A stretch of DNA of 64,000 nucleotides from Escherichia coli (GTDB lineage: Bacteria > Pseudomonadota > Gammaproteobacteria > Enterobacterales > Enterobacteriaceae). Shown piece after piece: positions 16,573 through 42,815 of this stretch. Under the pieces are notes generated by a model, which made no database searches, was not told the DNA's origin, and saw only the letters and a program-made list of their open reading frames with translations. Location of the stretch: NCBI RefSeq assembly GCF_044324875.1, contig NZ_CP172185.1; one strand, written 5' to 3'. Numbering within the stretch: position 1 is the first letter of the stretch; every line of letters starts with the position of its first letter. A program made the translations under genes and the position numbers.

Positions 16573-18111
16573 ATGCAACAACCTGTAGTTCGCGTTGGCG
16601 AATGGCTTGTTACTCCGTCCATAAACCAAATTAGCCGCAATGGGCGTCAACTTACCCTTGAGCCGAGATTAATCGATCTTCTGGTTTTCTTTGCTCAACA
16701 CAGTGGCGAAGTACTTAGCAGGGATGAACTTATCGATAATGTCTGGAAGAGAAGTATTGTCACCAATCACGTTGTGACGCAGAGTATCTCAGAACTACGT
16801 AAGTCATTAAAAGATAATGATGAAGATAGTCCTGTCTATATCGCTACTGTACCAAAGCGCGGCTATAAATTAATGGTGCCGGTTATCTGGTACAGCGAAG
16901 AAGAGGGAGAGGAAATAATGCTATCTTCGCCTCCCCCTATACCAGAGGCGGTTCCTGACACAGATTCTCCCTCCCACAGTCTTAACATTCAAAACACCGC
17001 AACACCACCTGAACAATCCCCTGTTAAAAGCAAACGATTCACTACCTTTTGGGTATGGTTTTTTTTCCTGTTGTCGTTAGGTATCTGTGTAGCACTGGTA
17101 GCGTTTTCAAGTCTTGATACACGTCTTCCGATGAGCAAATCGCGTATTTTGCTCAATCCACGCGATATTGACATTAATATGGTAAATAAAAGTTGTAACA
17201 GCTGGAGTTCCCCGTATCAGCTCTCTTACGCGATAGGCGTGGGTGATTTGGTGGCGACATCACTTAACACCTTCTCCACCTTTATGGTGCATGACAAAAT
17301 CAACTACAACATTGATGAACCGAGCAGTTCCGGTAAAACATTATCTATTGCGTTTGTTAATCAGCGCCAATACCGTGCTCAACAATGCTTTATGTCGGTA
17401 AAATTGGTAGACAATGCAGATGGTTCAACCATGCTGGATAAACGTTATGTCATCACTAACGGTAATCAGCTGGCGATTCAAAATGATTTACTCCAGAGTT
17501 TATCAAAAGCGTTAAACCAACCGTGGCCACAACGAATGCAGGAGATGCTCCAGCAAATTTTGCCTCATCGTGGTGCGTTATTAACTAATTTTTATCAGGC
17601 TCATGATTATTTACTGCATGGCGATGATAAATCATTGAACCGTGCCAGTGAATTACTAGGTGAGATTGTTCAATCATCCCCCGAATTTACCTACGCGAGA
17701 GCAGAAAAAGCATTAGTTGATATCGTGCGCCATTCTCAACATCCTTTGGATGAAAAACAATTAGCAGCACTGAACACAGAAATAAATAACATTGTTACAC
17801 TACCGGAATTGAATAACCTGTCCATTATATATCAAATAAAAGCGGTCAGTGCTCTGGTAAAAGGTAAAACAGATGAGTCTTACCAGGCGATAAATACTGG
17901 CATTGATCTTGAAATGTCCTGGCTAAATTATGTGTTGCTTGGCAAGGTTTATGAAATGAAGGGGATGAACCGGGAAGCAGCTGATGCATATCTCACCGCC
18001 TTTAATTTACGCCCAGGGGCAAACACCCTTTACTGGATTGAAAATGGTATATTCCAGACTTCTGTTCCTTATGTTGTACCTTATCTCGACAAATTTCTCG
18101 CTTCAGAATAA
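16573..18111 (+). CDS. cadC: CadC, membrane-bound ToxR-like activator of cadBA
   Basis: 512 aa, matches E. coli CadC. Confidence 0.95.
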   Translation: MQQPVVRVGEWLVTPSINQISRNGRQLTLEPRLIDLLVFFAQHSGEVLSRDELIDNVWKRSIVTNHVVTQSISELRKSLKDNDEDSPVYIATVPKRGYKLMVPVIWYSEEEGEEIMLSSPPPIPEAVPDTDSPSHSLNIQNTATPPEQSPVKSKRFTTFWVWFFFLLSLGICVALVAFSSLDTRLPMSKSRILLNPRDIDINMVNKSCNSWSSPYQLSYAIGVGDLVATSLNTFSTFMVHDKINYNIDEPSSSGKTLSIAFVNQRQYRAQQCFMSVKLVDNADGSTMLDKRYVITNGNQLAIQNDLLQSLSKALNQPWPQRMQEMLQQILPHRGALLTNFYQAHDYLLHGDDKSLNRASELLGEIVQSSPEFTYARAEKALVDIVRHSQHPLDEKQLAALNTEINNIVTLPELNNLSIIYQIKAVSALVKGKTDESYQAINTGIDLEMSWLNYVLLGKVYEMKGMNREAADAYLTAFNLRPGANTLYWIENGIFQTSVPYVVPYLDKFLASE

Positions 18112-18476
18112 GTAACTCCCGGGTTGATTTATGCTCGGGAATATTTGTTGTTGAGTTTTTGTATGTTCCTGTTGGTATAATATGTTGCGGCAATTTATTT
18201 GCCGCATAATTTTTATCACATAAATTTAACCAGGAAATATCCCGCAATCCATTGTAAACATTGAATGTTTATCTTTTCATGATATCAACTTGCGATCCTG
18301 ATGTGTTAATAAAAAACCTCAAGTTCTCACTTACAGAAACTTTTGTGTTATTTCACCTAATCTTTAGGATTAATCCTTTTTTCGTGAGTATTCTTAGCGC
18401 CAGTTTGGTCTGGTCAGGAAATAGTTATACATCATGACCCGGACTCCAAATTCAAAAATGAAATTAGGAGAAGAGC
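18112..18476 (+). promoter_or_regulatory. cadBA promoter region (Pcad, CadC-binding region)
   Basis: Intergenic cadC-cadB; assigned from known locus organisation, individual sites not resolved. Confidence 0.45.
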
Positions 18477-19811
18477 ATGAGTTCTGCCAAGAAGATCGGG
18501 CTATTTGCCTGTACCGGTGTTGTTGCCGGTAATATGATGGGGAGCGGTATTGCATTATTACCTGCGAACCTAGCAAGTATCGGTGGTATTGCTATCTGGG
18601 GTTGGATTATCTCTATTATTGGTGCAATGTCGCTGGCGTATGTATATGCCCGACTGGCAACAAAAAACCCGCAACAAGGTGGCCCAATTGCTTATGCCGG
18701 AGAAATTTCCCCTGCATTTGGTTTTCAGACAGGTGTTCTTTATTACCATGCTAACTGGATTGGTAACCTGGCGATTGGTATTACCGCTGTATCTTATCTT
18801 TCCACCTTCTTCCCAGTATTAAATGATCCTGTTCCGGCGGGTATCGCCTGTATTGCTATCGTCTGGGTATTTACCTTTGTAAATATGCTCGGCGGTACCT
18901 GGGTAAGCCGTTTAACCACTATTGGTCTGGTGCTGGTTCTTATTCCTGTGGTAATGACTGCTATTGTTGGCTGGCATTGGTTTGATGCTGCGACTTATGC
19001 TGCTAACTGGAATACTGCGGATACCACCGATGGTCATGCGATCATTAAAAGTATTCTGCTCTGCCTGTGGGCCTTCGTGGGTGTTGAATCCGCAGCTGTA
19101 AGTACTGGTATGGTTAAAAACCCGAAACGTACCGTTCCGCTGGCAACCATGCTGGGTACTGGTTTAGCAGGTATTGTTTATATCGCTGCGACTCAGGTGC
19201 TTTCCGGTATGTATCCGTCTTCTGTAATGGCAGCTTCCGGTGCTCCGTTTGCAATCAGTGCTTCAACTATCCTCGGTAATTGGGCTGCGCCGCTGGTTTC
19301 TGCATTCACCGCCTTTGCGTGCCTGACCTCTCTGGGCTCCTGGATGATGTTGGTAGGCCAGGCAGGTGTACGTGCCGCTAACGACGGTAACTTCCCGAAA
19401 GTTTATGGTGAAGTCGACAGCAACGGTATTCCGAAAAAAGGTCTGCTGCTGGCTGCAGTGAAAATGACTGCCCTGATGATCCTCATCACTCTGATGAACT
19501 CTGCCGGTGGTAAAGCATCTGACCTGTTCGGTGAACTGACCGGTATCGCAGTACTGCTGACTATGCTGCCGTACTTCTACTCTTGCGTTGACCTGATTCG
19601 TTTTGAAGGCGTTAACATCCGCAACTTTGTCAGCCTGATCTGCTCTGTACTGGGTTGCGTGTTCTGCTTCATCGCGCTGATGGGCGCAAGCTCCTTCGAG
19701 CTGGCAGGTACCTTCATCGTCAGCCTGATTATCCTGATGTTCTACGCTCGCAAAATGCACGAGCGCCAGAGCCACTCAATGGATAACCACACAGCGTCTA
19801 ACGCACATTAA
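18477..19811 (+). CDS. cadB: Lysine:cadaverine antiporter
   Basis: 444 aa APC-family transporter matching CadB. Confidence 0.95.
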   Translation: MSSAKKIGLFACTGVVAGNMMGSGIALLPANLASIGGIAIWGWIISIIGAMSLAYVYARLATKNPQQGGPIAYAGEISPAFGFQTGVLYYHANWIGNLAIGITAVSYLSTFFPVLNDPVPAGIACIAIVWVFTFVNMLGGTWVSRLTTIGLVLVLIPVVMTAIVGWHWFDAATYAANWNTADTTDGHAIIKSILLCLWAFVGVESAAVSTGMVKNPKRTVPLATMLGTGLAGIVYIAATQVLSGMYPSSVMAASGAPFAISASTILGNWAAPLVSAFTAFACLTSLGSWMMLVGQAGVRAANDGNFPKVYGEVDSNGIPKKGLLLAAVKMTALMILITLMNSAGGKASDLFGELTGIAVLLTMLPYFYSCVDLIRFEGVNIRNFVSLICSVLGCVFCFIALMGASSFELAGTFIVSLIILMFYARKMHERQSHSMDNHTASNAH

Positions 19812-19890
19812 TTAAAAGTATTTTCCGAGGCTCCTCCTTTCATTTTGTCCCATGTGTTGGGAGGGGCCTTTTTTACCTGGAGATATGACT

Positions 19891-22038
19891 ATGAACGTTA
19901 TTGCAATATTGAATCACATGGGGGTTTATTTTAAAGAAGAACCCATCCGTGAACTTCATCGCGCGCTTGAACGTCTGAACTTCCAGATTGTTTACCCGAA
20001 CGACCGTGACGACTTATTAAAACTGATCGAAAACAATGCGCGTCTGTGCGGCGTTATTTTTGACTGGGATAAATATAATCTCGAGCTGTGCGAAGAAATT
20101 AGCAAAATGAACGAGAACCTGCCGTTGTACGCGTTCGCTAATACGTATTCCACTCTCGATGTAAGCCTGAATGACCTGCGTTTACAGATTAGCTTCTTTG
20201 AGTATGCGCTGGGTGCTGCTGAAGATATTGCTAATAAGATCAAGCAGACCACTGACGAATATATCAACACTATTCTGCCTCCGCTGACTAAAGCACTGTT
20301 TAAATATGTTCGTGAAGGTAAATATACTTTCTGTACTCCTGGTCACATGGGCGGTACTGCATTCCAGAAAAGCCCGGTAGGTAGCCTGTTCTATGATTTC
20401 TTTGGTCCGAACACCATGAAATCTGATATTTCCATTTCAGTATCTGAACTGGGTTCTCTGCTGGATCACAGTGGTCCACACAAAGAAGCAGAACAGTATA
20501 TCGCTCGCGTCTTTAACGCAGACCGCAGCTACATGGTGACCAACGGTACTTCCACTGCGAACAAAATTGTTGGTATGTACTCTGCTCCGGCAGGCAGCAC
20601 CATTCTGATTGACCGTAACTGCCACAAATCGCTGACCCACCTGATGATGATGAGCGATGTTACGCCAATCTATTTCCGCCCGACCCGTAACGCTTACGGT
20701 ATTCTTGGTGGTATCCCACAGAGTGAATTCCAGCACGCTACCATTGCTAAGCGTGTGAAAGAAACACCAAACGCAACCTGGCCGGTACATGCCGTAATTA
20801 CTAACTCTACCTATGATGGTCTGCTGTACAACACCGACTTCATCAAGAAAACACTGGATGTGAAATCCATCCACTTTGACTCCGCGTGGGTGCCTTACAC
20901 CAACTTCTCACCGATTTACGAAGGTAAATGCGGTATGAGCGGTGGCCGTGTAGAAGGGAAAGTGATTTACGAAACCCAGTCCACTCACAAACTGCTGGCG
21001 GCGTTCTCTCAGGCTTCCATGATCCACGTTAAAGGTGACGTAAACGAAGAAACCTTTAACGAAGCCTACATGATGCACACCACCACTTCTCCGCACTACG
21101 GTATCGTGGCGTCCACTGAAACCGCTGCGGCGATGATGAAAGGTAATGCTGGTAAGCGTCTGATCAACGGTTCCATTGAACGTGCGATCAAATTCCGTAA
21201 AGAGATCAAACGCCTGAGAACGGAATCTGATGGCTGGTTCTTTGATGTATGGCAGCCGGATCATATCGATACGACTGAATGCTGGCCGCTGCGTTCTGAC
21301 AGCACCTGGCACGGCTTCAAAAACATCGATAACGAGCACATGTATCTTGACCCGATCAAAGTCACCCTGCTGACTCCGGGGATGGAAAAAGACGGCACCA
21401 TGAGCGACTTTGGTATTCCGGCCAGCATCGTGGCGAAATACCTCGACGAACATGGCATCGTTGTTGAGAAAACCGGTCCGTATAACCTGCTGTTCCTGTT
21501 CAGCATCGGTATCGATAAGACCAAAGCACTGAGCCTGCTGCGTGCTCTGACAGACTTCAAACGTGCGTTCGATCTGAACCTGCGTGTGAAAAACATGCTG
21601 CCGTCTCTGTATCGTGAAGATCCTGAATTCTATGAAAACATGCGTATTCAGGAACTGGCTCAGAATATCCACAAACTGATTGTTCACCACAATCTGCCGG
21701 ATCTGATGTATCGCGCATTTGAAGTTCTGCCGACCATGGTAATGACTCCGTATGCTGCGTTCCAGAAAGAGCTGCACGGTATGACCGAAGAAGTTTACCT
21801 CGACGAAATGGTAGGTCGTATTAACGCCAATATGATCCTTCCGTATCCGCCGGGAGTTCCTCTGGTAATGCCGGGTGAAATGATCACCGAAGAAAGCCGT
21901 CCGGTTCTGGAGTTCCTGCAGATGCTGTGTGAAATCGGCGCTCACTATCCGGGCTTTGAAACCGATATTCACGGTGCATACCGTCAGGCTGATGGCCGCT
22001 ATACCGTTAAGGTATTGAAAGAAGAAAGCAAAAAATAA
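19891..22038 (+). CDS. cadA: Inducible lysine decarboxylase
   Basis: Start trimmed to MNVIAILNHMGVYF; 715 aa. Confidence 0.95.
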   Translation: MNVIAILNHMGVYFKEEPIRELHRALERLNFQIVYPNDRDDLLKLIENNARLCGVIFDWDKYNLELCEEISKMNENLPLYAFANTYSTLDVSLNDLRLQISFFEYALGAAEDIANKIKQTTDEYINTILPPLTKALFKYVREGKYTFCTPGHMGGTAFQKSPVGSLFYDFFGPNTMKSDISISVSELGSLLDHSGPHKEAEQYIARVFNADRSYMVTNGTSTANKIVGMYSAPAGSTILIDRNCHKSLTHLMMMSDVTPIYFRPTRNAYGILGGIPQSEFQHATIAKRVKETPNATWPVHAVITNSTYDGLLYNTDFIKKTLDVKSIHFDSAWVPYTNFSPIYEGKCGMSGGRVEGKVIYETQSTHKLLAAFSQASMIHVKGDVNEETFNEAYMMHTTTSPHYGIVASTETAAAMMKGNAGKRLINGSIERAIKFRKEIKRLRTESDGWFFDVWQPDHIDTTECWPLRSDSTWHGFKNIDNEHMYLDPIKVTLLTPGMEKDGTMSDFGIPASIVAKYLDEHGIVVEKTGPYNLLFLFSIGIDKTKALSLLRALTDFKRAFDLNLRVKNMLPSLYREDPEFYENMRIQELAQNIHKLIVHHNLPDLMYRAFEVLPTMVMTPYAAFQKELHGMTEEVYLDEMVGRINANMILPYPPGVPLVMPGEMITEESRPVLEFLQMLCEIGAHYPGFETDIHGAYRQADGRYTVKVLKEESKK

Positions 22039-22051
22039 TTAGCTCGTACAA

Positions 22052-22079
22052 GGGAAGTGGCTTGCCACTTCCCTTTTTT
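22052..22079 (+). terminator. Rho-independent terminator after cadA
   Basis: GGGAAGTGGC..GCCACTTCCC stem followed by TTTTTT. Confidence 0.6.
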
Positions 22080-22096
22080 GCTCATAAGGAGAACAC

Positions 22097-23554
22097 ATGA
22101 AAACACCCTCACAGCCGCGCGCGATATACTATATCGTGGCGATCCAAATCTGGGAGTACTTCAGTTTTTACGGCATGCGTGCCTTACTCATTCTCTATCT
22201 CACCCATCAGCTTGGTTTTGATGATAACCATGCCATCAGCCTGTTCAGCGCATATGCATCTCTGGTTTACGTTACCCCTATTCTCGGCGGCTGGCTTGCC
22301 GACCGCCTGCTCGGCAACCGCACTGCAGTGATTGCCGGCGCGCTGTTAATGACCCTTGGCCATGTGGTGCTGGGCATTGATACAAATTCAACTTTTAGCC
22401 TGTATCTGGCGCTGGCAATCATTATTTGTGGCTACGGTTTATTCAAATCAAACATCAGCTGTTTGCTTGGCGAGCTCTACGACGAGAACGATCATCGACG
22501 TGATGGCGGTTTTTCGCTGCTGTATGCTGCGGGCAATATCGGTTCTATCGCAGCCCCAATCGCCTGCGGCCTGGCTGCTCAGTGGTATGGATGGCATGTT
22601 GGCTTTGCCCTTGCGGGTGGCGGCATGTTTATCGGTTTGTTGATTTTCTTAAGCGGTCATCGTCATTTCCAGTCCACGCGTAGTATGGATAAAAAAGCTC
22701 TAACAAGCGTTAAATTTGCCTTACCAGTATGGAGCTGGTTAGTGGTGATGCTCTGTTTAGCCCCTGTATTTTTTACCCTGCTGCTGGAGAACGACTGGTC
22801 AGGATATTTGCTGGCGATCGTTTGCCTCATTGCCGCACAAATCATTGCCCGCATGATGATCAAATTCCCCGAACACCGCCGTGCTCTTTGGCAAATTGTA
22901 TTGTTGATGTTTGTCGGGACATTGTTCTGGGTACTGGCACAACAGGGCGGCAGTACCATCAGCCTGTTTATCGATCGATTTGTGAATCGTCAGGCATTCA
23001 ATATTGAAGTACCTACTGCACTATTCCAGTCGGTGAACGCAATTGCGGTGATGCTCGCTGGGGTTGTACTTGCCTGGCTGGCATCGCCAGAAAGCCACGG
23101 TAACTCAACATTGCGCGTCTGGCTGAAGTTTGCCTTTGGTTTACTGCTGATGGCTTGTGGCTTTATGTTGCTGGCATTTGATGCCCGACATGCAGCGGCT
23201 GACGGTCAAGCGTCAATGGGCGTGATGATATCCGGGCTGGCGCTAATGGGCTTTGCCGAACTCTTTATTGACCCGGTGGCGATTGCGCAAATCACGCGTC
23301 TGAAAATGTCTGGCGTATTAACCGGTATTTATATGCTGGCAACAGGCGCGGTCGCCAACTGGCTGGCAGGCGTCGTGGCACAGCAGACGACAGAGTCGCA
23401 AATTAGCGGTATGGCAATTGCCGCTTACCAGCGATTCTTTTCTCAAATGGGAGAGTGGACGTTGGCTTGTGTCGCGATCATCGTGGTATTGGCCTTTGCT
23501 GCCCGTTTTCTGTTTAGCACGCCGACAAATATGATACAGGAGAGCAACGATTAA
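22097..23554 (+). CDS. dtpC: Dipeptide/tripeptide:H+ symporter DtpC (YjdL)
   Basis: 485 aa POT-family transporter. Confidence 0.9.
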
Positions 23555-23790
23555 CTGTCGTAAAAACAATTGGTTATGAATAAATTAACTTTCAGTTTAT
23601 CACACTAGCAAATCGAGATTAATAAGTCATTTAAACCATTTTTATGGTTATTTATTAGTGATATCAACTTGAGGTAAGCGTTAGTTTCGATAAGATAAAC
23701 TGAGTTATTAATAGTCGAGGCAGATAATACAGTGTACCGATCTGTCTCTTTATCTACGCTAAATTGAAAGCTGGATTTAGAGGAACCAAA

Positions 23791-25308
23791 ATGTCTGAAC
23801 GAGAAACACGGGGAGCCAATGAGGCTATTGATTTTAACGATGAACTGAGAAATCGCCGCGAAAAACTGGCGGCACTACGTCAGCAAGGTGTGGCGTTTCC
23901 CAATGATTTTCGCCGCGACCATACCTCTGACAAGTTGCACGAAGAGTTTGATGCGAAGGATAACCAGGAACTGGAATCCTTAAACATTGAAGTCTCGGTT
24001 GCTGGCCGAATGATGACCCGTCGTATCATGGGGAAAGCCTCCTTTGTAACGTTGCAGGATGTCGGTGGCCGTATTCAACTGTACGTTGCAAGAGATAGCC
24101 TGCCAGAAGGTGTTTATAACGATCAGTTTAAAAAATGGGATCTGGGTGACATTATCGGTGCCCGCGGTACGCTGTTTAAGACGCAAACCGGTGAGCTTTC
24201 CATTCACTGTACTGAGCTGCGCCTGCTGACTAAAGCACTACGTCCTTTACCAGATAAATTCCATGGTCTGCAGGATCAGGAAGTCCGTTATCGTCAACGT
24301 TATCTGGACCTCATCGCTAACGATAAATCCCGTCAAACGTTTGTTGTCCGTTCAAAAATTCTGGCCGCTATCCGTCAGTTCATGGTCGCGCGCGGCTTTA
24401 TGGAAGTAGAAACCCCGATGATGCAGGTAATTCCAGGTGGGGCATCTGCTCGCCCGTTTATTACCCATCATAACGCTCTGGATTTAGATATGTACCTGCG
24501 TATCGCGCCGGAGCTGTATCTGAAACGTCTGGTTGTAGGCGGTTTTGAACGGGTATTCGAAATCAACCGTAACTTCCGTAATGAAGGTATTTCTGTTCGC
24601 CATAATCCTGAGTTCACAATGATGGAACTCTACATGGCGTATGCGGATTACCACGATTTGATTGAACTGACGGAGTCCCTGTTCCGCACCCTGGCACAAG
24701 AGGTTCTTGGTACCACTAAAGTCACTTATGGCGAGCATGTGTTTGATTTCGGCAAACCGTTTGAAAAACTCACCATGCGCGAAGCAATCAAAAAATATCG
24801 TCCAGAAACCGATATGGCCGACCTGGATAATTTTGATGCTGCTAAAGCATTAGCTGAATCTATCGGAATTACGGTAGAGAAAAGCTGGGGTCTGGGACGT
24901 ATTGTTACGGAGATCTTTGATGAAGTGGCAGAAGCACATCTGATTCAGCCAACCTTTATTACGGAATATCCGGCAGAAGTGTCCCCGCTGGCGCGCCGTA
25001 ATGATGTTAACCCGGAAATCACCGACCGTTTTGAATTCTTCATCGGTGGTCGTGAAATCGGTAATGGTTTTAGCGAATTAAACGACGCAGAAGATCAGGC
25101 TGAACGTTTCCAGGAACAGGTTAACGCTAAAGCTGCAGGTGACGACGAAGCCATGTTCTATGACGAAGATTACGTGACTGCGCTGGAATATGGTCTGCCG
25201 CCAACCGCTGGTCTGGGTATTGGTATCGACCGAATGATTATGCTGTTTACAAACAGTCATACTATTCGCGACGTTATTCTCTTCCCGGCGATGCGCCCAC
25301 AGAAATAA
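23791..25308 (+). CDS. lysU: Lysyl-tRNA synthetase, inducible (LysU)
   Basis: Start trimmed from TTG to [11 protein letters not shown]; 505 aa class II aaRS; lysU rather than lysS by locus context. Confidence 0.9.
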
Positions 25309-25426
25309 ATTTCACTTAAATGAACGAAGCAGTCAGGCGACTGCTTCGTTCGTCGTTCCGCAAATCCAGTTATGAGGAGAGACGCTTCGTTTCAAGATAA
25401 CCAGCGGGTCCACTCAACTACAGCTC

Positions 25427-25600
25427 CTAAAAGAGAGAAAAAAGTAATGCCACAGGCAGACTCATTGGCCAGGTTATTCCGACCAGGAATGCACTAAGTA
25501 AACGAATATGTGTTTTCTCATGTGAGATAAACCAGATAATGACAAAGGATATGTTCACACCAATCACATAAAAAATTAATATTTTAGAGAATAGTGCCAT
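25427..25600 (-). CDS. ghoT: GhoT membrane-lytic toxin (57 aa); not in ORF track
   Basis: Manual translation MALFSKILIFYVIGVNISFVIIWFISHEKTHIRLLSAFLVGITWPMSLPVALLFSLF; downstream of ghoS. Confidence 0.8.
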   Translation of the reverse strand: MALFSKILIFYVIGVNISFVIIWFISHEKTHIRLLSAFLVGITWPMSLPVALLFSLF

Positions 25601-25627
25601 TTTTTATGTTCTTCTTATCCTTCCTGG

Positions 25628-25924
25628 CTACTTGTAAAACTGACGGAAATAGTCATCAACGGTCATAATGTTGAGGTCAAAATCAATATCCGGTAAGTCT
25701 AAGCATTTGAGCCTGATTAAATCTTCGATTTCACTTGCGGCTAATGATGTCGTTATTGCGAAGGAATTTTCATTCAATTGTCGTGGTATCCCATATTCAT
25801 CAGCCACGATAGAGGAGAAATTCATATCATACATCAATGATCTTAACCTTAAGAACACTGAGGAATAAGATGATGGATAATCAAAAGAAACAACATAAGT
25901 ATTGAACTTGTTTTTACCTTCCAT
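25628..25924 (-). CDS. ghoS: GhoS antitoxin (YjdK)
   Basis: 98 aa MEGKNKFNTYVVSFDYPSSY... Confidence 0.85.
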   Translation of the reverse strand: MEGKNKFNTYVVSFDYPSSYSSVFLRLRSLMYDMNFSSIVADEYGIPRQLNENSFAITTSLAASEIEDLIRLKCLDLPDIDFDLNIMTVDDYFRQFYK

Positions 25925-26151
25925 AATATGACTCCTATCAATTTTAAACGCTCTGGGGACGCAAAACTTATTAACCCCAATCGATGATTCTCATATAGGA
26001 GATATTCTTTTTTTTTGCTCAGTAAAGGGGATGACTTGGGACAAAAAAACGCTCTCTCTGCCCATTCTTTGTGCATCCCCCTACCCTTCAGATGCTCTCC
26101 TGCATCACACCGCGGAGAGCATGAAAAATATCGTGACTCTGTACTCTCCCA

Positions 26152-26424
26152 TCAACTGCGAATATCATCATACTCCCGCGTTTTATCAAATTCGTGTTTC
26201 GCAAATGGGCATAGTGGGATAATTTTTCGTTTTTCCCGACGCATTTTTTCCACGACTTTCGCAACCAGCTGTTTACCAATCCCCTGCCCTTTCAGGCTTT
26301 CATCGACATCGGTATGTTCGATAATCGCTAAATTCTCTCCGGTCGGCACAAAGACAATTTCAGCGATTTGCTTGCCTTGTTCGTCATTAATGTAAAATTT
26401 ATTGTGGCCTTCGCGTATTTCCAT
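26152..26424 (-). CDS. yjdJ: YjdJ, small GNAT-like protein
   Basis: 90 aa. Confidence 0.8.
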
Positions 26425-26435
26425 TTTACCCTCGC

Positions 26436-32828: not shown

Positions 32829-32950
32829 CCTCTTCGGCCCAGCGCCTGGCAGCATGCTGCCAGGTGATCCCCCTGGGCCACCTCTTTTGCGATTGTAATT
32901 TCACGCTTGCTGGTGAATAGTCAGTATTTTCCCTGACTTGCGAACTCACC

Positions 32951-33580: not shown

Positions 33581-33718
33581 CAACGTGCGCTTTGTTGACG
33601 CCGGATGCGGCGTGAATTCCTTATCCGGTCTACAAAATTTGCAAATCCAAAGCATTACATTAAGACATGGCCTGATAAACATATCGCATCAGGCCATTTT
33701 CGTTAGCTATTGTCCACG

Positions 33719-35140
33719 TCAGGCTTTCACATCACTCACTGCACCGACCGGAATATCAGCATGAACAGGCTCGGGCGGTACTTTGCGATATTTATCCAGC
33801 AGATGGATCTGGATCCTGCGCAGCGTGTCACCATTGAGGCGATAGAAACGGAAGTAGAGAATCAGCGTTACCATGAAAAACAGAGTCGGTAGAGCAATCA
33901 TAATAAACTGCATACCTAATAGGGCTTGCGTAGACTGTTCAACATTCGGTACATAGCCAATCATCCCTAACACAACCGCAATGAAAAAAGCCGCAAAGGC
34001 TGAACCGCCCTTCACCACCATAGTCTGCACGGAGTAAGCGATGCTTTCACAGCGTACGTGCAGTTTATATTCACCGTAATCAACGGTATCTGCCACCATG
34101 ATGACCTGTAATACCCAGAAAAGCGCCGTTCCCACATTCAGCAAGATACCCGCAATCACAATGAGGACGACGTTGTGATAGCTCATTAATGCCATTAACA
34201 GGAGAACACCACAGCTTAACACCGGAAGAATAGATGCTCCGGCCCATAAAATGCGTCGGGATAATGATTTAACTAAGCGTGGGAAGAATACTAACGTCAC
34301 CAGGTTAGCAGCTCCCGCATACGACAGATAATAGGGGAACAAATCCGCATCACCGATAACATATGAGAAATAATAGATAGCAAAGCCGGTAATAATATTG
34401 CTGGCTACATTATAAGCAAGAGCCATACCCAAGAGGCATGAAAGCTGATCGTTTTTATAAATAAGCGCAACGATGGCTTTAAGTGTCAGATGGCTTCCTT
34501 CAGCAGACGGTTGATTGTCTGACGAAAAGACTTCATGCACATTGCGCAGAGTGATGATGGTTGAAACAATAAAAAAGGCGATCAGTACCAGAGTGAACAT
34601 CTGAAAGCCAAATCCCCGATCGCCACCGCCGACATAATTAACAAATGGTAGCGTCACACCTGCCGTAACAAAGCCCGCCAGACTGGCAAAAAAACGCGGA
34701 TAAGGAACCAGTTGTTCGCGCTCACGTTTATCGAGCGTTATGGTTGGAACCAGCGACCAGAAGGGAATATCCATAATGGTGTAAGTCATGCCCCAGAGGA
34801 TGTAGGTCACGCAAACAAAGACAATCTGAGTAGTACCTTCAAACAGATGCGCACTAAAGAGGAGAAATAAGATTACAGAGTTTGCCAACGTACCGATCAG
34901 GATCCAGGGTTTGAACTGACCCCATCGCGATCGCGTAGCATTTACAATCCATCCCATAATCGGATCGTTAATAGCATCCCAGATCCTCGCCACCAGAAAC
35001 AAAGTACCGACCAAACCCACAGACAGCCCGACGACATCGGTGTAGTAATACATGAGGTACATATACACAATGCCGATCGCAAAATCCTTCCCGAACGCTC
35101 CAAATCCATAACTGAGTTTTGTAGTCATTGAAATGCTCAT
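33719..35140 (-). CDS. melB: Melibiose:cation symporter
   Basis: Start trimmed to [14 protein letters not shown]; 473 aa. Confidence 0.95.
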
Positions 35141-35242
35141 AGGGTATCGGGTCGCTGTTACCAACGCCCGCCTTCTGTTATTGGTATCGTCAGAGGTGTG
35201 CGCCGGAATAAATCCCCCGGCGCAGTAGCGTTTAGTCGCATT

Positions 35243-36598
35243 TTAACGGTGCAACCAGCCAGGCAGCCAGTCGCCGTGGGCAGCAATCAAGTCGTCAACA
35301 AGAGCATATATTTCGTCAATGCCCAGCACGGCGGCAGTATGCGGGTCCATCATCGCGGCGTGGTAAACACGGTCGCGATTTTCCGTAAGAATGGCTTCGG
35401 TCAGCAGCGTCTGTACGTTGATGTTGGTTTGCATCAGGGCGGCCAGATGCGAAGGTAGCGTACCGACTTTGGTCGGCTGAATGCCATTAGCATCAACCAG
35501 ACAGGCCACTTCCACACAACATCCTTGTGGCAGGTTATCAATCAATCCATCGTTACGGACGTTGCCGTAAATCACACTCGGCTCGCCAGTCCAGATAGCG
35601 TTCATGATTGTGCTGGCATATTCCCGTGACGGTTTAATATCAATCCAGGAGGCGTTTTTATACTCCTCCAGCTCTTTATGCCAGTTCGCCAGCTGCTCGA
35701 CGCAGCGTTTCGGGTACTCATCCAGCGGTACTTTATAACGCTCAATCAAATCCTCACGACCTGGCTTAATGAACCACGGTGTGTACTCAGCAAAATGTTC
35801 TGACGATTCCGTGACGAAGTAGCCCAGCTTTTTGAACATTTCATAGCGCACAATATTCTGGCAGCGAGTATTGCCATGAATATTCGGCTTCGGTGCCTGC
35901 CCTGCTTCATAAGCCGCCAGCAGTTCCGGGTAGAGATTCACGTAACTGCCGTCGGCGGTTTTGCGCTCCAGTTCCAGGTAAAACGCCATATGGTTGATAC
36001 CTGCGCAACGGTAACGCAGCGTAGCCGGGTCGATATTGAGGTCACGCGCCAGTTCTTCCGCCGTTCCCTGCACCGAATGGCACAGCCCTACCTGTTTGAT
36101 ATGCGGATAGCGGGCATACATCGCCCAGGTATTCATCGCCATTGGGTTAACGTAGTTGAGCATGGTGGCATCGGGGCAGACTTCCGTCATGTCCTCGCAA
36201 ATTTGCCACAGGTGCGGAATGGTACGTAGCGCGCGCATAATACCGCCCGGCCCCAACGTATCGGCAATGGTTTGTTCCAGACCATGCCGCTTACAGACCT
36301 CGAAATCAGTCACCGTGCAAGGTTCATAACCGCCAATCTGAAATGCCACCACCACAAAATCGGCATCCTGTAAGGCTTCTTTCTGTTGGGTGTGGCAGGT
36401 GATTTTGCCGCTGGCCCCTGCTGAATCCATCAGCTTACGCACCACAATGTGCGACTCTTCCAGGCGGGTGGGATCAATGTCCATCAGGGCAATATGCGCC
36501 GTTTTCAGCGCCTCGCGATGGAACACATCACCAAGAATATTTTTAACGAAAATCGTCGAACCAGCGCCGATAAATGTAATTTTGGGTGCAGACATCAT
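35243..36598 (-). CDS. melA: Alpha-galactosidase
   Basis: 451 aa, MMSAPKITFIGAGS. Confidence 0.95.
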   Translation of the reverse strand: MMSAPKITFIGAGSTIFVKNILGDVFHREALKTAHIALMDIDPTRLEESHIVVRKLMDSAGASGKITCHTQQKEALQDADFVVVAFQIGGYEPCTVTDFEVCKRHGLEQTIADTLGPGGIMRALRTIPHLWQICEDMTEVCPDATMLNYVNPMAMNTWAMYARYPHIKQVGLCHSVQGTAEELARDLNIDPATLRYRCAGINHMAFYLELERKTADGSYVNLYPELLAAYEAGQAPKPNIHGNTRCQNIVRYEMFKKLGYFVTESSEHFAEYTPWFIKPGREDLIERYKVPLDEYPKRCVEQLANWHKELEEYKNASWIDIKPSREYASTIMNAIWTGEPSVIYGNVRNDGLIDNLPQGCCVEVACLVDANGIQPTKVGTLPSHLAALMQTNINVQTLLTEAILTENRDRVYHAAMMDPHTAAVLGIDEIYALVDDLIAAHGDWLPGWLHR

Positions 36599-36880
36599 GC
36601 AGATCTCCTGGCTTGCTTGAATAACTTCATCATGGCAGGCGAATCTGCAGAAAACCTCCGGCTTCCAGGTTGAGCATTCCCATAAACTCAGATCCTACGT
36701 GAAGCATCAATAAATCTGAGTTTATGGGAATAAATTACCTGAAAAGCAGAGTTTTCGGCCTCATGATGCTCGGACGCTCCCCTCGCCGCTGTGGGAAGAG
36801 GGTGAAAACCGTGCTCCCACTCGCAGTCATCCTCCCTCACTCCTGCCATAATTCTGATATTCCAGGAAAGAGAGCCATCC
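36599..36880. promoter_or_regulatory. Divergent melR / melAB promoter region
   Basis: Intergenic between divergent melA and melR; assigned from known locus organisation. Confidence 0.4.
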
Positions 36881-37789
36881 ATGAATACAGATACGTTTAT
36901 GTGCAGCAGCGACGAAAAACAGACCCGCAGCCCGCTGTCGCTGTATTCGGAATACCAGCGGATGGAGATTGAGTTTCGCGCACCGCATATCATGCCCACC
37001 AGCCACTGGCATGGCCAGGTCGAAGTGAATGTGCCTTTCGATGGCGATGTGGAATACCTGATCAACAATGGAAAAGTGAATATCAATCAGGGTCATATCA
37101 CGCTGTTCTGGGCCTGTACACCGCACCAACTAACAGATACAGGAACCTGTCAGAGCATGGCGATTTTTAATCTGCCGATGCATCTGTTTCTCTCCTGGCC
37201 GCTGGATAAAGACCTGATTAACCACGTCACTCACGGCATGGTGATCAAATCACTGGCCACACAGCAACTTAGCCCGTTTGAAGTGCGCCGCTGGCAGCAG
37301 GAATTGAACAGTCCGAACGAGCAAATTCGCCAGCTCGCCATTGATGAAATTGGCCTGATGCTCAAGCGATTTAGCCTCTCTGGCTGGGAACCGATTCTGG
37401 TCAATAAAACCTCGCGCACACACAAAAACAGCGTCTCGCGCCATGCGCAATTTTATGTTAGCCAGATGCTGGGCTTTATTGCCGAAAACTATGATCAGGC
37501 GCTGACCATCAACGATGTGGCTGAGCACGTCAAACTTAACGCCAACTATGCAATGGGGATATTCCAGCGGGTCATGCAATTGACGATGAAACAGTACATA
37601 ACCGCGATGCGCATCAACCACGTTCGCGCGTTACTGAGCGATACCGATAAAAGTATTCTCGATATTGCCCTGACGGCAGGCTTTCGTTCAAGTAGTCGTT
37701 TTTACAGCACGTTCGGCAAATATGTCGGCATGTCGCCGCAACAATACCGCAAACTTAGCCAACAGCGCCGCCAGACGTTTCCCGGCTAA
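36881..37789 (+). CDS. melR: AraC-family melibiose operon activator
   Basis: 302 aa. Confidence 0.95.
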   Translation: MNTDTFMCSSDEKQTRSPLSLYSEYQRMEIEFRAPHIMPTSHWHGQVEVNVPFDGDVEYLINNGKVNINQGHITLFWACTPHQLTDTGTCQSMAIFNLPMHLFLSWPLDKDLINHVTHGMVIKSLATQQLSPFEVRRWQQELNSPNEQIRQLAIDEIGLMLKRFSLSGWEPILVNKTSRTHKNSVSRHAQFYVSQMLGFIAENYDQALTINDVAEHVKLNANYAMGIFQRVMQLTMKQYITAMRINHVRALLSDTDKSILDIALTAGFRSSSRFYSTFGKYVGMSPQQYRKLSQQRRQTFPG

Positions 37790-37987
37790 AGACGATATCA
37801 GTATCAGCCAAAAAAATAGTTTAGCCGTCGATAATAAGCAGTGAAAATAATTTAAAATAATCACATAACATATTGTTTATAAAAACAAATATTTCAAAAA
37901 TGTTTGTTTTTCACGCGCTTTACAGCCCGAAAAGGCCGGAAGATACTTGCCCGCAACGAAGATTCCTTCATAACCGGGTAAGCAATG

Positions 37988-40255
37988 ATGAAAGTATTAA
38001 TTGTTGAAAGCGAGTTTCTCCATCAAGACACCTGGGTCGGTAACGCCGTTGAGCGTCTGGCAGATGCTTTAAGCCAGCAAAATGTTACCGTGATTAAATC
38101 CACCTCCTTTGATGATGGTTTTGCCATTCTCTCTTCAAACGAAGCCATTGACTGCCTGATGTTCAGCTATCAAATGGAACATCCGGACGAACATCAAAAC
38201 GTCAGACAATTGATCGGTAAGCTTCATGAGCGCCAACAAAACGTGCCGGTCTTCCTGTTGGGCGATCGGGAAAAAGCCCTCGCCGCAATGGACCGGGATC
38301 TGCTGGAGCTTGTCGATGAATTCGCCTGGATTCTGGAAGATACCGCCGACTTTATCGCCGGACGCGCCGTTGCCGCGATGACCCGCTACCGCCAGCAACT
38401 GTTGCCGCCACTGTTCAGCGCGCTGATGAAATATAGCGACATCCATGAATATTCCTGGGCAGCGCCAGGCCACCAGGGCGGCGTTGGTTTTACCAAAACA
38501 CCCGCCGGACGTTTCTACCATGACTACTATGGTGAAAATCTGTTCCGCACCGACATGGGCATCGAACGAACTTCCCTCGGTTCTTTGCTTGACCATACTG
38601 GCGCATTTGGCGAAAGCGAAAAATATGCTGCACGCGTATTTGGTGCCGATCGCTCCTGGTCGGTAGTCGTCGGTACTTCCGGCTCTAACCGCACCATCAT
38701 GCAGGCTTGCATGACCGATAACGATATCGTGGTCGTTGACCGTAACTGCCATAAATCCATCGAACAAGGCTTGATGCTGACAGGCGCGAAACCGGTCTAC
38801 ATGGTGCCAAGCCGCAACCGCTATGGCATTATCGGGCCAATCTATCCGCAGGAAATGCAACCTGAAACCTTGCAGAAGAAAATCAGTGAAAGCCCGCTGA
38901 CTAAAGACAAAGCCGGGCAAAAACCGTCTTACTGCGTAGTGACCAACTGTACCTATGACGGCGTGTGTTATAACGCTAAAGAAGCGCAGGATCTGCTGGA
39001 AAAAACCTCCGATCGTCTGCACTTTGACGAAGCCTGGTACGGCTATGCACGTTTCAACCCGATCTATGCCGATCACTATGCCATGCGCGGCGAACCTGGC
39101 GATCACAACGGTCCTACCGTTTTCGCCACCCACTCCACCCACAAACTGCTGAATGCGCTGTCACAGGCCTCTTATATTCATGTACGTGAAGGTCGTGGGG
39201 CGATTAACTTCTCCCGCTTCAACCAGGCCTACATGATGCATGCCACCACCTCCCCGCTGTATGCCATCTGCGCATCCAACGACGTGGCGGTGTCGATGAT
39301 GGACGGCAACAGCGGCCTGTCACTGACGCAGGAAGTGATCGACGAAGCGGTTGATTTCCGTCAGGCGATGGCGCGACTGTATAAAGAGTTCACCGCTGAC
39401 GGTAGCTGGTTCTTCAAACCGTGGAACAAAGAAGTCGTCACCGACCCACAAACCGGCAAAACCTATGACTTTGCTGACGCACCAACCAAACTGCTGACCA
39501 CCGTTCAGGACTGCTGGGTCATGCATCCGGGCGAAAGCTGGCACGGCTTCAAAGATATTCCGGATAACTGGAGTATGCTCGACCCGATTAAAGTCAGCAT
39601 CCTTGCTCCGGGAATGGGTGAAGATGGTGAACTGGAAGAAACCGGCGTTCCAGCGGCGCTGGTCACTGCCTGGCTTGGTCGCCACGGCATTGTGCCTACC
39701 CGCACCACTGACTTCCAAATTATGTTCCTGTTCTCTATGGGCGTAACCCGTGGGAAATGGGGGACTCTGGTTAACACCCTTTGCTCCTTCAAACGCCACT
39801 ATGACGCCAACACACCGCTGGCGCAGGTGATGCCGGAACTTGTTGAACAATATCCTGACACTTACGCGAACATGGGGATTCACGATCTGGGTGACACCAT
39901 GTTTGCCTGGCTGAAAGAAAACAACCCTGGCGCACGGTTGAACGAAGCCTATTCCGGCCTACCGGTGGCGGAAATCACCCCGCGAGAAGCGTACAACGCG
40001 ATTGTCGACAACAATGTCGAACTGGTATCCATTGAAAACCTACCAGGACGCATCGCGGCAAACTCAGTTATCCCGTATCCGCCAGGAATCCCGATGCTGC
40101 TGTCTGGTGAAAACTTCGGCGATAAAAACAGTCCGCAAGTAAGTTATTTACGCTCGCTGCAATCCTGGGACCATCATTTCCCTGGATTTGAACACGAAAC
40201 TGAAGGGACTGAAATTATTGACGGTATTTACCACGTTATGTGTGTGAAAGCGTAA
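37988..40255 (+). CDS. adiA: Biodegradative arginine decarboxylase
   Basis: Start at second Met (MKVLIVESEF); 755 aa. Confidence 0.95.
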   Translation: MKVLIVESEFLHQDTWVGNAVERLADALSQQNVTVIKSTSFDDGFAILSSNEAIDCLMFSYQMEHPDEHQNVRQLIGKLHERQQNVPVFLLGDREKALAAMDRDLLELVDEFAWILEDTADFIAGRAVAAMTRYRQQLLPPLFSALMKYSDIHEYSWAAPGHQGGVGFTKTPAGRFYHDYYGENLFRTDMGIERTSLGSLLDHTGAFGESEKYAARVFGADRSWSVVVGTSGSNRTIMQACMTDNDIVVVDRNCHKSIEQGLMLTGAKPVYMVPSRNRYGIIGPIYPQEMQPETLQKKISESPLTKDKAGQKPSYCVVTNCTYDGVCYNAKEAQDLLEKTSDRLHFDEAWYGYARFNPIYADHYAMRGEPGDHNGPTVFATHSTHKLLNALSQASYIHVREGRGAINFSRFNQAYMMHATTSPLYAICASNDVAVSMMDGNSGLSLTQEVIDEAVDFRQAMARLYKEFTADGSWFFKPWNKEVVTDPQTGKTYDFADAPTKLLTTVQDCWVMHPGESWHGFKDIPDNWSMLDPIKVSILAPGMGEDGELEETGVPAALVTAWLGRHGIVPTRTTDFQIMFLFSMGVTRGKWGTLVNTLCSFKRHYDANTPLAQVMPELVEQYPDTYANMGIHDLGDTMFAWLKENNPGARLNEAYSGLPVAEITPREAYNAIVDNNVELVSIENLPGRIAANSVIPYPPGIPMLLSGENFGDKNSPQVSYLRSLQSWDHHFPGFEHETEGTEIIDGIYHVMCVKA

Positions 40256-40371
40256 CCACTATTCCGCTGAAGGCGTAATTGTTTAAATAACATTACGCCG
40301 CCTGGCCTTAGGCCTTTTGAGTATGGCAACGTTTTCATAAAAATTGCTGCAAACAAAAATGTCATACTTTT

Positions 40372-40400
40372 TGCGCGGCCCCATCCCGCGCTTTTTTTTG
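40372..40400 (+). terminator. Rho-independent terminator after adiA
   Basis: GCGCGG..CCGCGC hairpin followed by a T run. Confidence 0.5.
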
Positions 40401-40579
40401 CCTGTTATTTACCCTGTAAAAAAATATGTACATGAGAAATTACTATAAAAATTTGTAATATTAGTAAAACTCGTTATTTTTATGCATGTTTATATTCATC
40501 ATACAATTATATAACCATTTCCCGGTATCGCTTTGCTTTAGCGAGAACTGGTCTTTTATTCGCACTCAGGAGTACATGT

Positions 40580-41341
40580 ATGAGGATTTGCAGCGACCAA
40601 CCTTGTATTGTTTTATTGACTGAAAAAGATGTCTGGATAAGGGTGAATGGGAAAGAACCTATTAGCCTTAAAGCTAACCATATGGCGTTATTAAATTGTG
40701 AAAATAATATTATCGACGTCTCCTCTCTTAATAACACTTTGGTTGCTCATATTAGTCACGACATCATCAAAGATTACCTCCGGTTTCTGAATAAAGATCT
40801 CTCGCAAATACCAGTATGGCAACGTAGCGCTACGCCCATCCTCACCCTGCCATGCCTGACGCCAGACGTCTTTCGCGTTGCCGCGCAACATAGCATGATG
40901 CCCGCTGAAACTGAGTCAGAAAAGGAACGAACACGTGCATTATTATTCACTGTGCTATCCCGTTTTCTCGACAGTAAAAAATTCCTTTCATTAATGATGT
41001 ATATGTTACGTAATTGTGTAAGTGACAGCGTTTATCAAATTATTGAAAGCGATATCCACAAAGACTGGAATCTTAGTATGGTAGCCAGTTGTTTATGTCT
41101 TAGCCCAAGTCTGTTAAAGAAAAAGCTGAAAAGCGAAAACACCAGTTATAGCCAAATAATCACCACCTGCCGCATGCGTTATGCCGTCAATGAATTAATG
41201 ATGGACGGTAAAAATATCTCTCAGGTATCACAATCCTGCGGCTACAACAGTACGTCGTACTTTATTTCTGTCTTTAAAGACTTCTACGGTATGACGCCTC
41301 TGCATTATGTTAGTCAGCACAGAGAACGCACTGTCGCCTGA
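40580..41341 (+). CDS. adiY: AraC-family regulator AdiY
   Basis: 253 aa. Confidence 0.9.
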   Translation: MRICSDQPCIVLLTEKDVWIRVNGKEPISLKANHMALLNCENNIIDVSSLNNTLVAHISHDIIKDYLRFLNKDLSQIPVWQRSATPILTLPCLTPDVFRVAAQHSMMPAETESEKERTRALLFTVLSRFLDSKKFLSLMMYMLRNCVSDSVYQIIESDIHKDWNLSMVASCLCLSPSLLKKKLKSENTSYSQIITTCRMRYAVNELMMDGKNISQVSQSCGYNSTSYFISVFKDFYGMTPLHYVSQHRERTVA

Positions 41342-41477
41342 TTTTTAACCTTAACGAAGAGCTATATTAATAACGGCATCAGCGATAACCCGGTCGATAA
41401 TAATTCAACTATCGAATGCAGGCGTATGATATGACGTAATTTATTGTCACGAAGCTCGCCTTCGCGGGAGTTTAATT

Positions 41478-42815
41478 ATGTCTTCGGATGCTGATGCTCA
41501 CAAAGTGGGCTTAATCCCCGTCACCCTGATGGTGTCGGGGAATATTATGGGGTCAGGTGTTTTTCTGTTACCTGCAAACCTGGCCTCTACTGGCGGGATT
41601 GCCATTTATGGATGGTTGGTGACGATTATCGGTGCGCTGGGGCTCTCGATGGTATACGCCAAAATGTCGTTCCTCGACCCAAGTCCTGGTGGTTCTTACG
41701 CTTACGCCCGCCGCTGCTTTGGGCCGTTTCTCGGTTATCAAACCAACGTCCTCTACTGGCTGGCCTGCTGGATCGGCAATATCGCCATGGTGGTCATTGG
41801 CGTAGGATATTTAAGTTACTTCTTCCCGATTCTGAAAGATCCACTGGTATTAACCATCACCTGCGTCGTGGTGCTGTGGATCTTCGTCCTGCTGAACATT
41901 GTCGGTCCGAAAATGATCACCCGTGTGCAGGCCGTTGCCACCGTGCTGGCGCTGATCCCCATCGTCGGGATTGCCGTATTTGGCTGGTTCTGGTTCCGTG
42001 GTGAAACCTATATGGCGGCATGGAACGTCAGCGGCCTGGGCACCTTCGGCGCGATTCAAAGTACCCTTAACGTTACGCTGTGGTCGTTCATCGGTGTGGA
42101 AAGTGCCTCCGTTGCCGCAGGTGTGGTGAAAAACCCGAAACGCAACGTCCCTATCGCCACCATTGGTGGGGTATTGATTGCCGCCGTTTGCTATGTGCTC
42201 TCCACCACCGCGATTATGGGGATGATCCCTAATGCCGCACTGCGCGTTTCTGCCTCGCCATTCGGTGATGCCGCACGGATGGCGTTGGGTGACACCGCCG
42301 GGGCCATTGTTTCCTTCTGCGCAGCTGCGGGTTGCTTAGGTTCACTGGGCGGCTGGACGTTGCTGGCGGGTCAAACGGCGAAAGCCGCTGCCGATGACGG
42401 ACTGTTCCCACCGATTTTTGCCCGTGTAAATAAAGCGGGTACGCCAGTGGCAGGGCTGATTATCGTCGGTATTTTGATGACCATCTTCCAGCTCAGTAGC
42501 ATTTCGCCAAACGCGACCAAAGAATTCGGTCTGGTGTCTTCCGTGTCGGTCATCTTTACACTGGTGCCATATCTTTACACCTGTGCGGCATTACTGCTGC
42601 TCGGCCACGGTCACTTTGGTAAAGCACGCCCGGCATACCTGGCAGTTACTACCATTGCCTTCCTCTACTGCATCTGGGCCGTAGTAGGGTCCGGCGCAAA
42701 AGAGGTTATGTGGTCATTTGTCACTCTGATGGTAATCACCGCCATGTATGCGCTGAATTACAACCGGCTGCATAAAAACCCGTATCCCTTAGATGCACCA
42801 ATAAGCAAAGATTAA
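41478..42815 (+). CDS. adiC: Arginine:agmatine antiporter
   Basis: 445 aa. Confidence 0.95.

Follow-up and report, generated by a model that had tools for sequence, protein, structure and literature searches.

Intact cad and adi acid-resistance loci beside a pheU-integrated genomic island in Escherichia coli

Results

Organization of the region

The DNA analyzed in this study is a stretch of 64,000 nucleotides from Escherichia coli, referred to below as the window. Its left part is the distal portion of a genomic island that occupies the tRNA gene pheU, after which come cadC-cadBA and, farther downstream, adiA-adiY-adiC. Nucleotide alignment showed that positions 15935–46509 are colinear with E. 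coli K-12 MG1655, with 98.56% identity over 30,577 alignment columns. Five 1-bp indels relative to K-12 (at 15950, 18118, 26008, 26710, and 32875) were found, none of which hit a coding sequence, and no insertion-sequence element interrupted the 30 kb of core sequence in this alignment.

In the tblastn analysis, the six cad and adi genes and the 14 genes between them gave gap-free end-to-end matches to the K-12 proteins. Each of the six cad and adi translations had a single terminal stop, and neither nucleotide nor protein alignment to K-12 revealed a frameshift or premature stop in these genes. The first-pass annotation of the window had described all six as full length, which these three lines of analysis confirmed; it had pointed to alignment with K-12 as the place where hidden frameshifts could appear, and none turned up. 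Five of the proteins (CadC, CadB, the lysine decarboxylase, the arginine decarboxylase, and AdiC) scored above the curated NCBIfam cut-offs. In cadA, cadB, and adiC taken together, 0 of the 57 nucleotide differences from K-12 were nonsynonymous; the cad and adi genes are under strong purifying selection.

Genomic island and pheU junction

Homology to K-12 began only at position 15935, and positions 1–15934 were assigned to the distal end of the island. Its cargo was annotated using Pfam matches and annotated near-identical island copies. The gene content comprised PTS IIB/IIA, regulator (LacI family), YagK/YfjJ-family, GTPase, DUF932, antirestriction, RadC, and DUF987 genes, together with a toxin-antitoxin pair of the YeeU/CbtA type, DUF5983, and DUF4942. 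A 407-aa island protein had no match in PADLOC or Pfam, and Rfam, run with permissive settings over positions 6800–8450, where ORFs are sparse, gave sub-threshold matches only. The island forms the context of the acid-resistance modules and lies outside them.

Alignment to K-12 pheU identified a 22-nt copy of the 3′ end of this tRNA-Phe gene at 15935–15956 (+ strand), an attR-type junction repeat. It is one G short of the 23 nt in K-12 and occurs only once in the window. The intrinsic terminator hairpin of pheU follows at 15966–15991 (+ strand), with an 11-bp stem and then a T-run, in the same sequence as downstream of K-12 pheU. The K-12 annotation, mapped via the alignment, placed an integrase pseudogene remnant (yjdQ in K-12, b4654) at 16154–16316 (+ strand); a yjdQ-type remnant is also annotated in strain Ch1, ST131, and O157. 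The distance from the pheU end to the cadC ATG was 616 bp in both the window and K-12. It had been claimed that the island adjoins a cadC upstream flank of unaltered length, about 615 bp; the K-12 alignment bears this out, with the estimate off by one base. The repeated tRNA 3′ end and the unchanged flank that follows it are what the distal junction of a pheU-integrated island should show.

No tRNA gene was detected in the window, and dicD and dsbD were absent from it by tblastn, indicating that the island extends past the left edge and that an intact pheU, if any, lies outside. The draft genome L004 shares the CadC allele of the window but has no island at this point, where dicD-pheU lies directly and joins at the same base. 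Islands at pheU or pheV with a CP4-57-like YeeU/CbtA tail have the same tRNA-Phe 3′-end junction repeat and the same terminal module order as found here (GTPase, DUF932, antirestriction, RadC, DUF987, YeeU, CbtA, DUF5983, DUF957, and DUF4942). In contrast to these islands, only the distal 15.9 kb lies within the window, and the end with the integrase falls outside it, as does the intact pheU. Strain ECCNB12-2 carries a 97.8% identical island copy at another site, beside setC/yicL.

The cad locus

cadC (16573–18111, + strand) encodes a 512-aa, membrane-integrated, ToxR-like activator responsive to pH and lysine, as identified by tblastn, K-12 alignment, and the NCBIfam equivalog NF007540 (756 bits; cut-off, 400). 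The protein matches the CadC architecture of an N-terminal winged-helix DNA-binding domain, a single membrane-spanning helix, and a periplasmic sensor containing the Cys208/Cys272 pair. Pfam records for the identical protein list Trans_reg_C and CadC_C1, and the exact sequence was present on 182 public contigs. All 512 of the 512 residues aligned with K-12 CadC without gaps at 98.8% identity, the six substitutions being A129D, I276V, E308Q, T325M, K328Q, and D405N. Among the nine sequences compared, D405N was confined to this allele group. The dN/dS of cadC relative to K-12 was 0.14.

We checked 22 CadC residues, namely the DNA-contact residues, R184, and Cys208/Cys272, which were taken from papers, and further positions, which we take to be pH-sensing and LysP-contact residues. 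All 22 were kept, and no substitution fell among them. R32, R50, W58, H66, T69, Q70, and K95, which contact DNA (PMC5430869), were kept, as were the cleavage site R184 and the C208 and C272 pair (PMC3096576, PMC11484849). F165 was also kept.

The cadBA promoter carries the Cad1 and Cad2 sites. The CadC-binding site Cad1, a 41-mer spanning −153 to −113 that was placed by alignment of the published sequence (PMC5430869), lies at 18252–18292 (+ strand) and matches K-12 at 40 of 41 positions; the exception is A>G at 18263, corresponding to −142. The promoter is identical to K-12 from −113 to −15 and differs from it at −142, −14, and −8, where the window has G, T, and G (T>G), respectively.

cadB (18477–19811, + strand) encodes the 444-aa lysine/cadaverine antiporter and lies directly upstream of cadA in one operon. 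Its 13 nucleotide differences from K-12 were all synonymous, so that the protein is 100% identical, and it scored 920 bits with NF007754 (cut-off, 585). A spacer of 79 bp, identical to that of K-12, separates it from cadA (19891–22038, + strand), which encodes the 715-aa inducible lysine decarboxylase. CadA is likewise 100% identical to the K-12 protein, with 17 nucleotide differences, all synonymous. NF011929 gave 1628 bits (cut-off, 1056), and the LdcC model scored lower, at 1350 bits. The protein is a full-length decarboxylase of the OKR_DC_1 (PLP fold type I) family, and it contains the stretch STHK, presumably the place of the PLP-binding lysine. In the mechanical ORF list, the cadA start was set 39 nt farther upstream, at 19852. 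A hairpin search found a terminator-like hairpin after cadA at 22050–22075 (+ strand), and between cadA and dtpC the sequence does not differ from that of K-12.

Compared with the K-12 Cad system (AR4), gene order, lengths, and spacing are shared. The differences outside the genes are ten intergenic changes, including the three in the cadBA promoter, and the replacement of the upstream pheU by the island end and the 22-nt pheU remnant.

The adi locus

adiA (37988–40255, + strand) encodes the acid-inducible (biodegradative) arginine decarboxylase, full length with 755 of 755 residues aligned gap-free. It differs from K-12 by two conservative substitutions, V247I and V663I (99.7% identity), and scored 1705 bits with NF011603 (cut-off, 1167). 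The mechanical ORF list set its start 3 nt farther upstream, at 37985. Between adiA and adiC lies adiY (40580–41341, + strand), which encodes a 253-aa AraC/XylS-type activator of both genes. AdiY is identical to K-12 at 252 of 253 residues (99.6%; V136L), and His34 and His60, its pH-sensing residues (PMC12826058), are present. NCBIfam has no dedicated model for AdiY, and the best match was GadX, under its cut-off; thus, the assignment rests on near-identity and synteny. The dN/dS was 0.02 for adiA and for adiY. The exact AdiA allele was found on 352 public contigs and the exact AdiY allele on at least 1000.

adiC (41478–42815, + strand) encodes the 445-aa arginine/agmatine antiporter, which is 100% identical to the K-12 protein with 27 nucleotide differences, all synonymous, and scored 892 bits with NF007929 (cut-off, 574). 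The locus shares gene order and lengths with the K-12 Adi system (AR3), and the intergenic regions are 98.5–99.3% identical without indels. The differences from AR3 are limited to the three substitutions in AdiA and AdiY and seven intergenic single-base differences.

Discussion

The window very probably contains an ordinary E. coli core segment, lying between pheU and basRS, with two intact amino-acid-dependent acid-resistance systems. This reading is drawn from the colinearity with K-12, the non-coding position of the indels, the near-identical proteins, the signs of purifying selection, the NCBIfam scores, the kept residues, and the common promoter alleles. The presence of intact cad and adi loci is the normal state of the species and already known biology. 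The strain has the default E. coli gene set for the inducible acid-resistance systems that depend on lysine and arginine, and its cadC was left undisturbed by the pheU island.

Judging from the sequence identity to K-12, in which both mechanisms have been shown, the Cad system would respond to mild acid and lysine through the membrane sensor CadC, which would bind Cad1 and Cad2 and activate cadBA. Lysine would be decarboxylated by CadA, consuming a proton, and CadB would swap cadaverine for external lysine. At lower pH, AdiY protonated at His34/His60 would activate adiA and adiC, AdiA would decarboxylate arginine, and AdiC would exchange agmatine for arginine. Both systems also have trans-acting partners encoded beyond the window, LysP, H-NS, DsbC, and DegP/Q in the case of cad and further factors in that of adi. 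The island probably entered the chromosome at the pheU 3′ end, ahead of cadC, leaving the 22-nt repeat. It spared the 616 bp preceding cadC, in which the terminator of pheU, the old remnant of an integrase gene, and the promoter region of cadC are all retained. With cad and adi intact and this flank untouched, the strain would be expected to be lysine-decarboxylase positive and to show arginine-dependent acid resistance. The junction also offers a clean anchor, at base 15934/15935, for placing where the pheU island ends on its right-hand side.

Intact genes could nevertheless belong to a silent or weakened cad module, owing to the promoter differences, to the CadC substitutions (A129D, E308Q, D405N, and others), or to a defect in trans, for example, in lysP. 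At −142, A>G alters a base within the TTA of the motif proposed for CadC recognition, 5′-TTAxxxxT-3′ (PMC5430869), the changes at −14 and −8 adjoin or fall within the inferred −10 region, and one of the six CadC substitutions, D405N, is lineage-restricted. However, 61-mers identical to those of the window occur in 1764 complete E. coli genomes for Cad1 and in 1914 for the second promoter segment, and G at −142 and at −8 was also present in the ST131, O157:H7, Ch1, and PKF11 genomes examined. K-12 is the odd one out at −142 against the eight other sequences in the comparison; at −8, it differs from all of them except the divergent strain E600003. The three promoter variants are widespread natural alleles, and a promoter crippled by them was therefore rejected as the main reading. 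Furthermore, the CadC substitutions miss every critical residue checked, the dN/dS of cadC points to continuing constraint, and the lack of nonsynonymous change in cadB and cadA is unexpected for a long-silenced operon. We consider a silent module very unlikely.

Another effect of the same alleles has a small chance of being real: the CadC allele (D129, Q308, and N405) and the promoter allele (G at −142, T at −14, and G at −8) might set an induction threshold or output of cadBA unlike that of K-12. In that case, the heterogeneity of E. coli lineages under acid stress would be tuned in part of the cad system by its natural alleles.

Returning to the reading of an ordinary core segment, we considered what the intact cad locus says about lineage. 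The first-pass annotation stated that cad is often inactivated in Shigella and enteroinvasive lineages and took intact cadA as informative. The former agrees with the literature: the lysine-decarboxylase-negative phenotype is caused by mutations of the cad locus, mainly in cadC in EIEC (PMC5723341). The latter holds only weakly. An intact locus speaks against a classical Shigella-like lineage, and 5188 of 5426 complete E. coli genomes (95.6%) have cad as a contiguous locus, while the emerging EIEC clone O96:H19 has kept its cad operon intact and is positive for lysine decarboxylase (PMC5723341); intact cadA thus tells little beyond that. Its value is low, arguing against classical Shigella and most EIEC and little else. 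The adi locus is contiguous in 5400 of the 5426 genomes. The "black hole" loci of Shigella and EIEC, which reflect a pathoadaptive loss of lysine decarboxylase, occupy the same chromosomal position beside pheU but have been damaged by deletions, by IS insertions, or by mutations that inactivate cadC (PMC5723341, PMC4156367), whereas no gene is disrupted here. Within this scope, intact cad is useful as a negative marker, denoting a strain without the classical Shigella/EIEC-type cad erosion.

The O96:H19 example also means that the window could come from an invasive (EIEC-like) or pathoadapted lineage that has not yet become cad-negative, in which case intact cad would be no sign of a commensal-type lineage. 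The occupation of pheU by an island fits such an origin, as does the finding that none of the 5426 complete E. coli genomes was more than 99.4% identical to the window. However, the window holds no invasion-related gene, the visible island cargo consists of PTS/sugar genes and a prophage-like toxin-antitoxin tail, and the 30 kb of core is free of IS disruption. The closest relatives are poultry, wild-bird, and human isolates with no pathotype stated. An invasive or pathoadapted origin is highly improbable on this evidence. Shigella origin, raised by the complete-genome identity of at most 99.4%, was rejected, as the locus is intact and IS-free and draft E. coli genomes match at 99.4–99.9%.

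Barring assembly errors in the window, there is a negligible chance that any of the six genes is a pseudogene whose frameshift or stop escaped the ORF reading, given the gap-free matches at K-12 lengths, the one terminal stop per translation, and the intergenic position of all five indels in the 30.6-kb alignment. At the gathering threshold, Rfam matched nothing within the cad-adi span; farther right in the window, it matched STnc630 and two REP-type naRNA4 copies.

Intactness of the cad and adi genes

We aligned the window with the E. coli K-12 MG1655 region 4,332,000-4,368,000. A single colinear block spanned window 15935-46509 (30,577 columns, 98.56% identity). An ORF scan found plus-strand ORFs at the coordinates of the first-pass annotation, and the K-12 alignment placed there cadC (16573-18111, 512 aa), cadB (18477-19811, 444 aa), cadA (19891-22038, 715 aa), adiA (37988-40255, 755 aa), adiY (40580-41341, 253 aa), and adiC (41478-42815, 445 aa). 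Translation of each gene ran to a single stop at its end and gave a product exactly as long as that of K-12. The proteins CadB, CadA, and AdiC did not differ from those of K-12; substitutions were present in CadC (A129D, I276V, E308Q, T325M, K328Q, and D405N), AdiA (V247I and V663I), and AdiY (V136L).

When 25 K-12 proteins were used as tblastn queries, every gene from cadC to basS was matched full length without gaps. Five 1-bp indels relative to K-12 (15950, 18118, 26008, 26710, and 32875) were all located outside coding sequences. Hidden frameshifts would have contradicted the earlier claim that cadC-cadBA and adiA-adiY-adiC are full length; as the matches were gap-free, the indels non-coding, and the translations of K-12 length, nucleotide and protein alignment to K-12 detected none in the six genes. 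In a megablast search, 14000-38000 was matched in 5425 of 5426 complete E. coli genomes, and the annotation under the match comprised cadC, cadB, cadA, dtpC, lysS/lysU, ghoTS, yjdJI, dcuSR, dcuB, fumB, yjdF, melBA, melR, adiA, adiY, adiC, eptA, and basRS. Among the genes that separate the cad and adi modules is the type V toxin-antitoxin pair ghoS/ghoT (25430-25924), whose proteins are 100% identical to those of K-12. The finding of intact cad and adi loci is real and was correctly located and read; these loci are textbook parts of the core genome, and their state here is the normal one.

Predicted function and constraint

Identity to the characterised K-12 systems suggests the functions of the cad and adi products. 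Five of the six proteins scored above NCBIfam curated cut-offs (CadC, cadaverine/lysine antiporter, lysine decarboxylase, arginine decarboxylase, and arginine/agmatine antiporter). The sixth, AdiY, has no dedicated NCBIfam model; it is identical to K-12 AdiY at 252 of 253 residues and its gene is located between adiA and adiC. All residues checked in CadC and AdiY were conserved, namely the CadC DNA-contact residues R32, R50, W58, H66, T69, Q70, and K95 (PMC5430869), Cys208 and Cys272 of the CadC disulfide (PMC3096576), R184 as the proposed site of cleavage (PMC11484849), and the AdiY pH-sensing residues His34 and His60 (PMC12826058).

All 57 nucleotide differences from K-12 across cadA, cadB, and adiC were synonymous. 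Against K-12, adiA and adiY each had a dN/dS of 0.02 and cadC one of 0.14, indicating that purifying selection acts on all six genes.

Lineage value of the cad locus

A locus was counted as present when one place covered at least 80% of the query (6.2 kb for cad). The cad locus was present in 5188 of the 5426 complete E. coli genomes (95.6%) and the adi locus in 5400 (99.5%); thus, intact cad and adi are the default state in E. coli. The first-pass annotation described cad as often inactivated in Shigella and enteroinvasive lineages, in line with PMC5723341: cad is silenced in Shigella and most EIEC, in EIEC chiefly via cadC (PMC5723341; also PMC4156367). To this extent intact cad carries some lineage information, but EIEC O96:H19 retains an intact operon (PMC5723341) and intactness is the default in the species. 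Intact cad is therefore a weak lineage marker.

Among the 5426 complete RefSeq E. coli genomes, none was more than about 99.2-99.4% identical to any of the tested parts of the window, an unusual result for this species. The draft assembly GCA_900482385.1 was 99.88% identical over the cad region. Finished genomes seem to include few members of the lineage from which the strain comes.

Outside the cad/adi span, Rfam matched the sRNA STnc630 (46297-46462, minus strand, adjoining basS/pmrB) and two REP-type naRNA4 elements (52129-52206 and 54683-54763). The GC content of about 0.6 at 53-64 kb reflects the core phn operon and not foreign DNA.

cadBA promoter and CadC alleles

The 41-mer of the CadC-binding site Cad1 (-153 to -113; PMC5430869) was located at 18252-18292, a position that would place the cadBA transcription start at 18405, 72 nt upstream of the cadB ATG. 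Within Cad1, position -142 (18263), one of the bases of the proposed CadC motif 5'-TTAxxxxT-3' (PMC5430869), is G in the window and A in K-12. Positions -113 to -15 are the same in both, and the window has T for A at -14 (18391) and G for T at -8 (18397). The 61-mer around Cad1 was identical in 1764 complete genomes and that around the -10 region in 1914; judged from these sequences, the differences at -142, -14, and -8 are not lesions.

Among nine sequences compared, K-12 alone had A at -142, the other eight having G. G at -8 was found in all except K-12 and the divergent strain E600003, that is, in the window, ST131, O157:H7, Ch1, PKF11, and two draft-genome loci (L004 and L005, the latter from GCA_900482385.1); T at -14 was shared by the window, PKF11, and both draft loci. 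Because, among these nine, A at -142 occurs only in K-12, which also has T at -8 where all others but E600003 have G, the K-12 cadBA promoter, on which all studies of the Cad promoter are based, may not be representative of the species. In the CadC sequences compared, V276, M325, and Q328 are each found in most, D129 and Q308 also occur in other lineages, and N405 is limited to the allele group of the window, which is found on 182 public contigs. The CadC and promoter allele pair of the window may differ quantitatively in its behaviour from that of K-12.

The pheU flank upstream of cadC

Homology to K-12 starts within pheU: window 15935-15956, TTCGATTCCGAGTCCGGCACCA, corresponds to the final 23 nt of tRNA-Phe less one G. 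ARAGORN detected no tRNA gene in the window, and dicD and dsbD, which lie beyond pheU in K-12, were not found by tblastn. The pheU remnant is followed on its 3' side by the pheU terminator hairpin (15966-15991) and then, before cadC, by an integrase pseudogene remnant (approximately 16154-16316; yjdQ in the K-12 annotation) common to K-12, ST131, O157:H7, and Ch1. This remnant is evidence for a far older pheU island preceding the present insertion.

In both the window and K-12, 616 bp separate the pheU sequence from the cadC ATG (16 substitutions, no indel), confirming the equal flank length proposed earlier (about 615 bp). L004, from a draft genome that lacks the island but shares the CadC allele of the window, meets the window exactly at 15935. 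This indicates that an island has integrated at the 3' end of pheU, that 1-15934 is its distal end, and that its insertion left the cadC upstream region unchanged.

Gene content of the island tail

The part of the island tail within the window encodes the IIA and IIB components of a PTS, a LacI-family regulator, a YagK/YfjJ-family protein, a GTPase, DUF932, an antirestriction protein, RadC, DUF987, YeeU/CbtA, DUF5983, and DUF4942. The PTS in window 1-3000 (and in locus L003 at 1-5900) is of the ascorbate type; in the window it consists of IIC, which is clipped by the window edge, IIB, and IIA, and is accompanied by the divergent LacI-family regulator. In strain ECCNB12-2, whose island copy is 97.8% identical and adjoins setC/yicL, not pheU, two transketolase subunits extend the PTS cluster.

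The lowest GC content in the window (0.34-0.40) was found at 6900-9621, where Rfam gave only sub-threshold matches in the ORF-poor part. This part (approximately 6900-8400, about 1.3 kb) is without annotation in related RefSeq genomes and is followed by a 407-aa minus-strand ORF (8398-9621) that had no Pfam or PADLOC match and is annotated as hypothetical in other genomes. ORFs for a YeeU (CbeA)-type antitoxin and a CbtA-type toxin (13644-14513) both seem intact; in Ch1, the closest complete genome, the cbtA homologue and adjoining genes are annotated as frameshifted.
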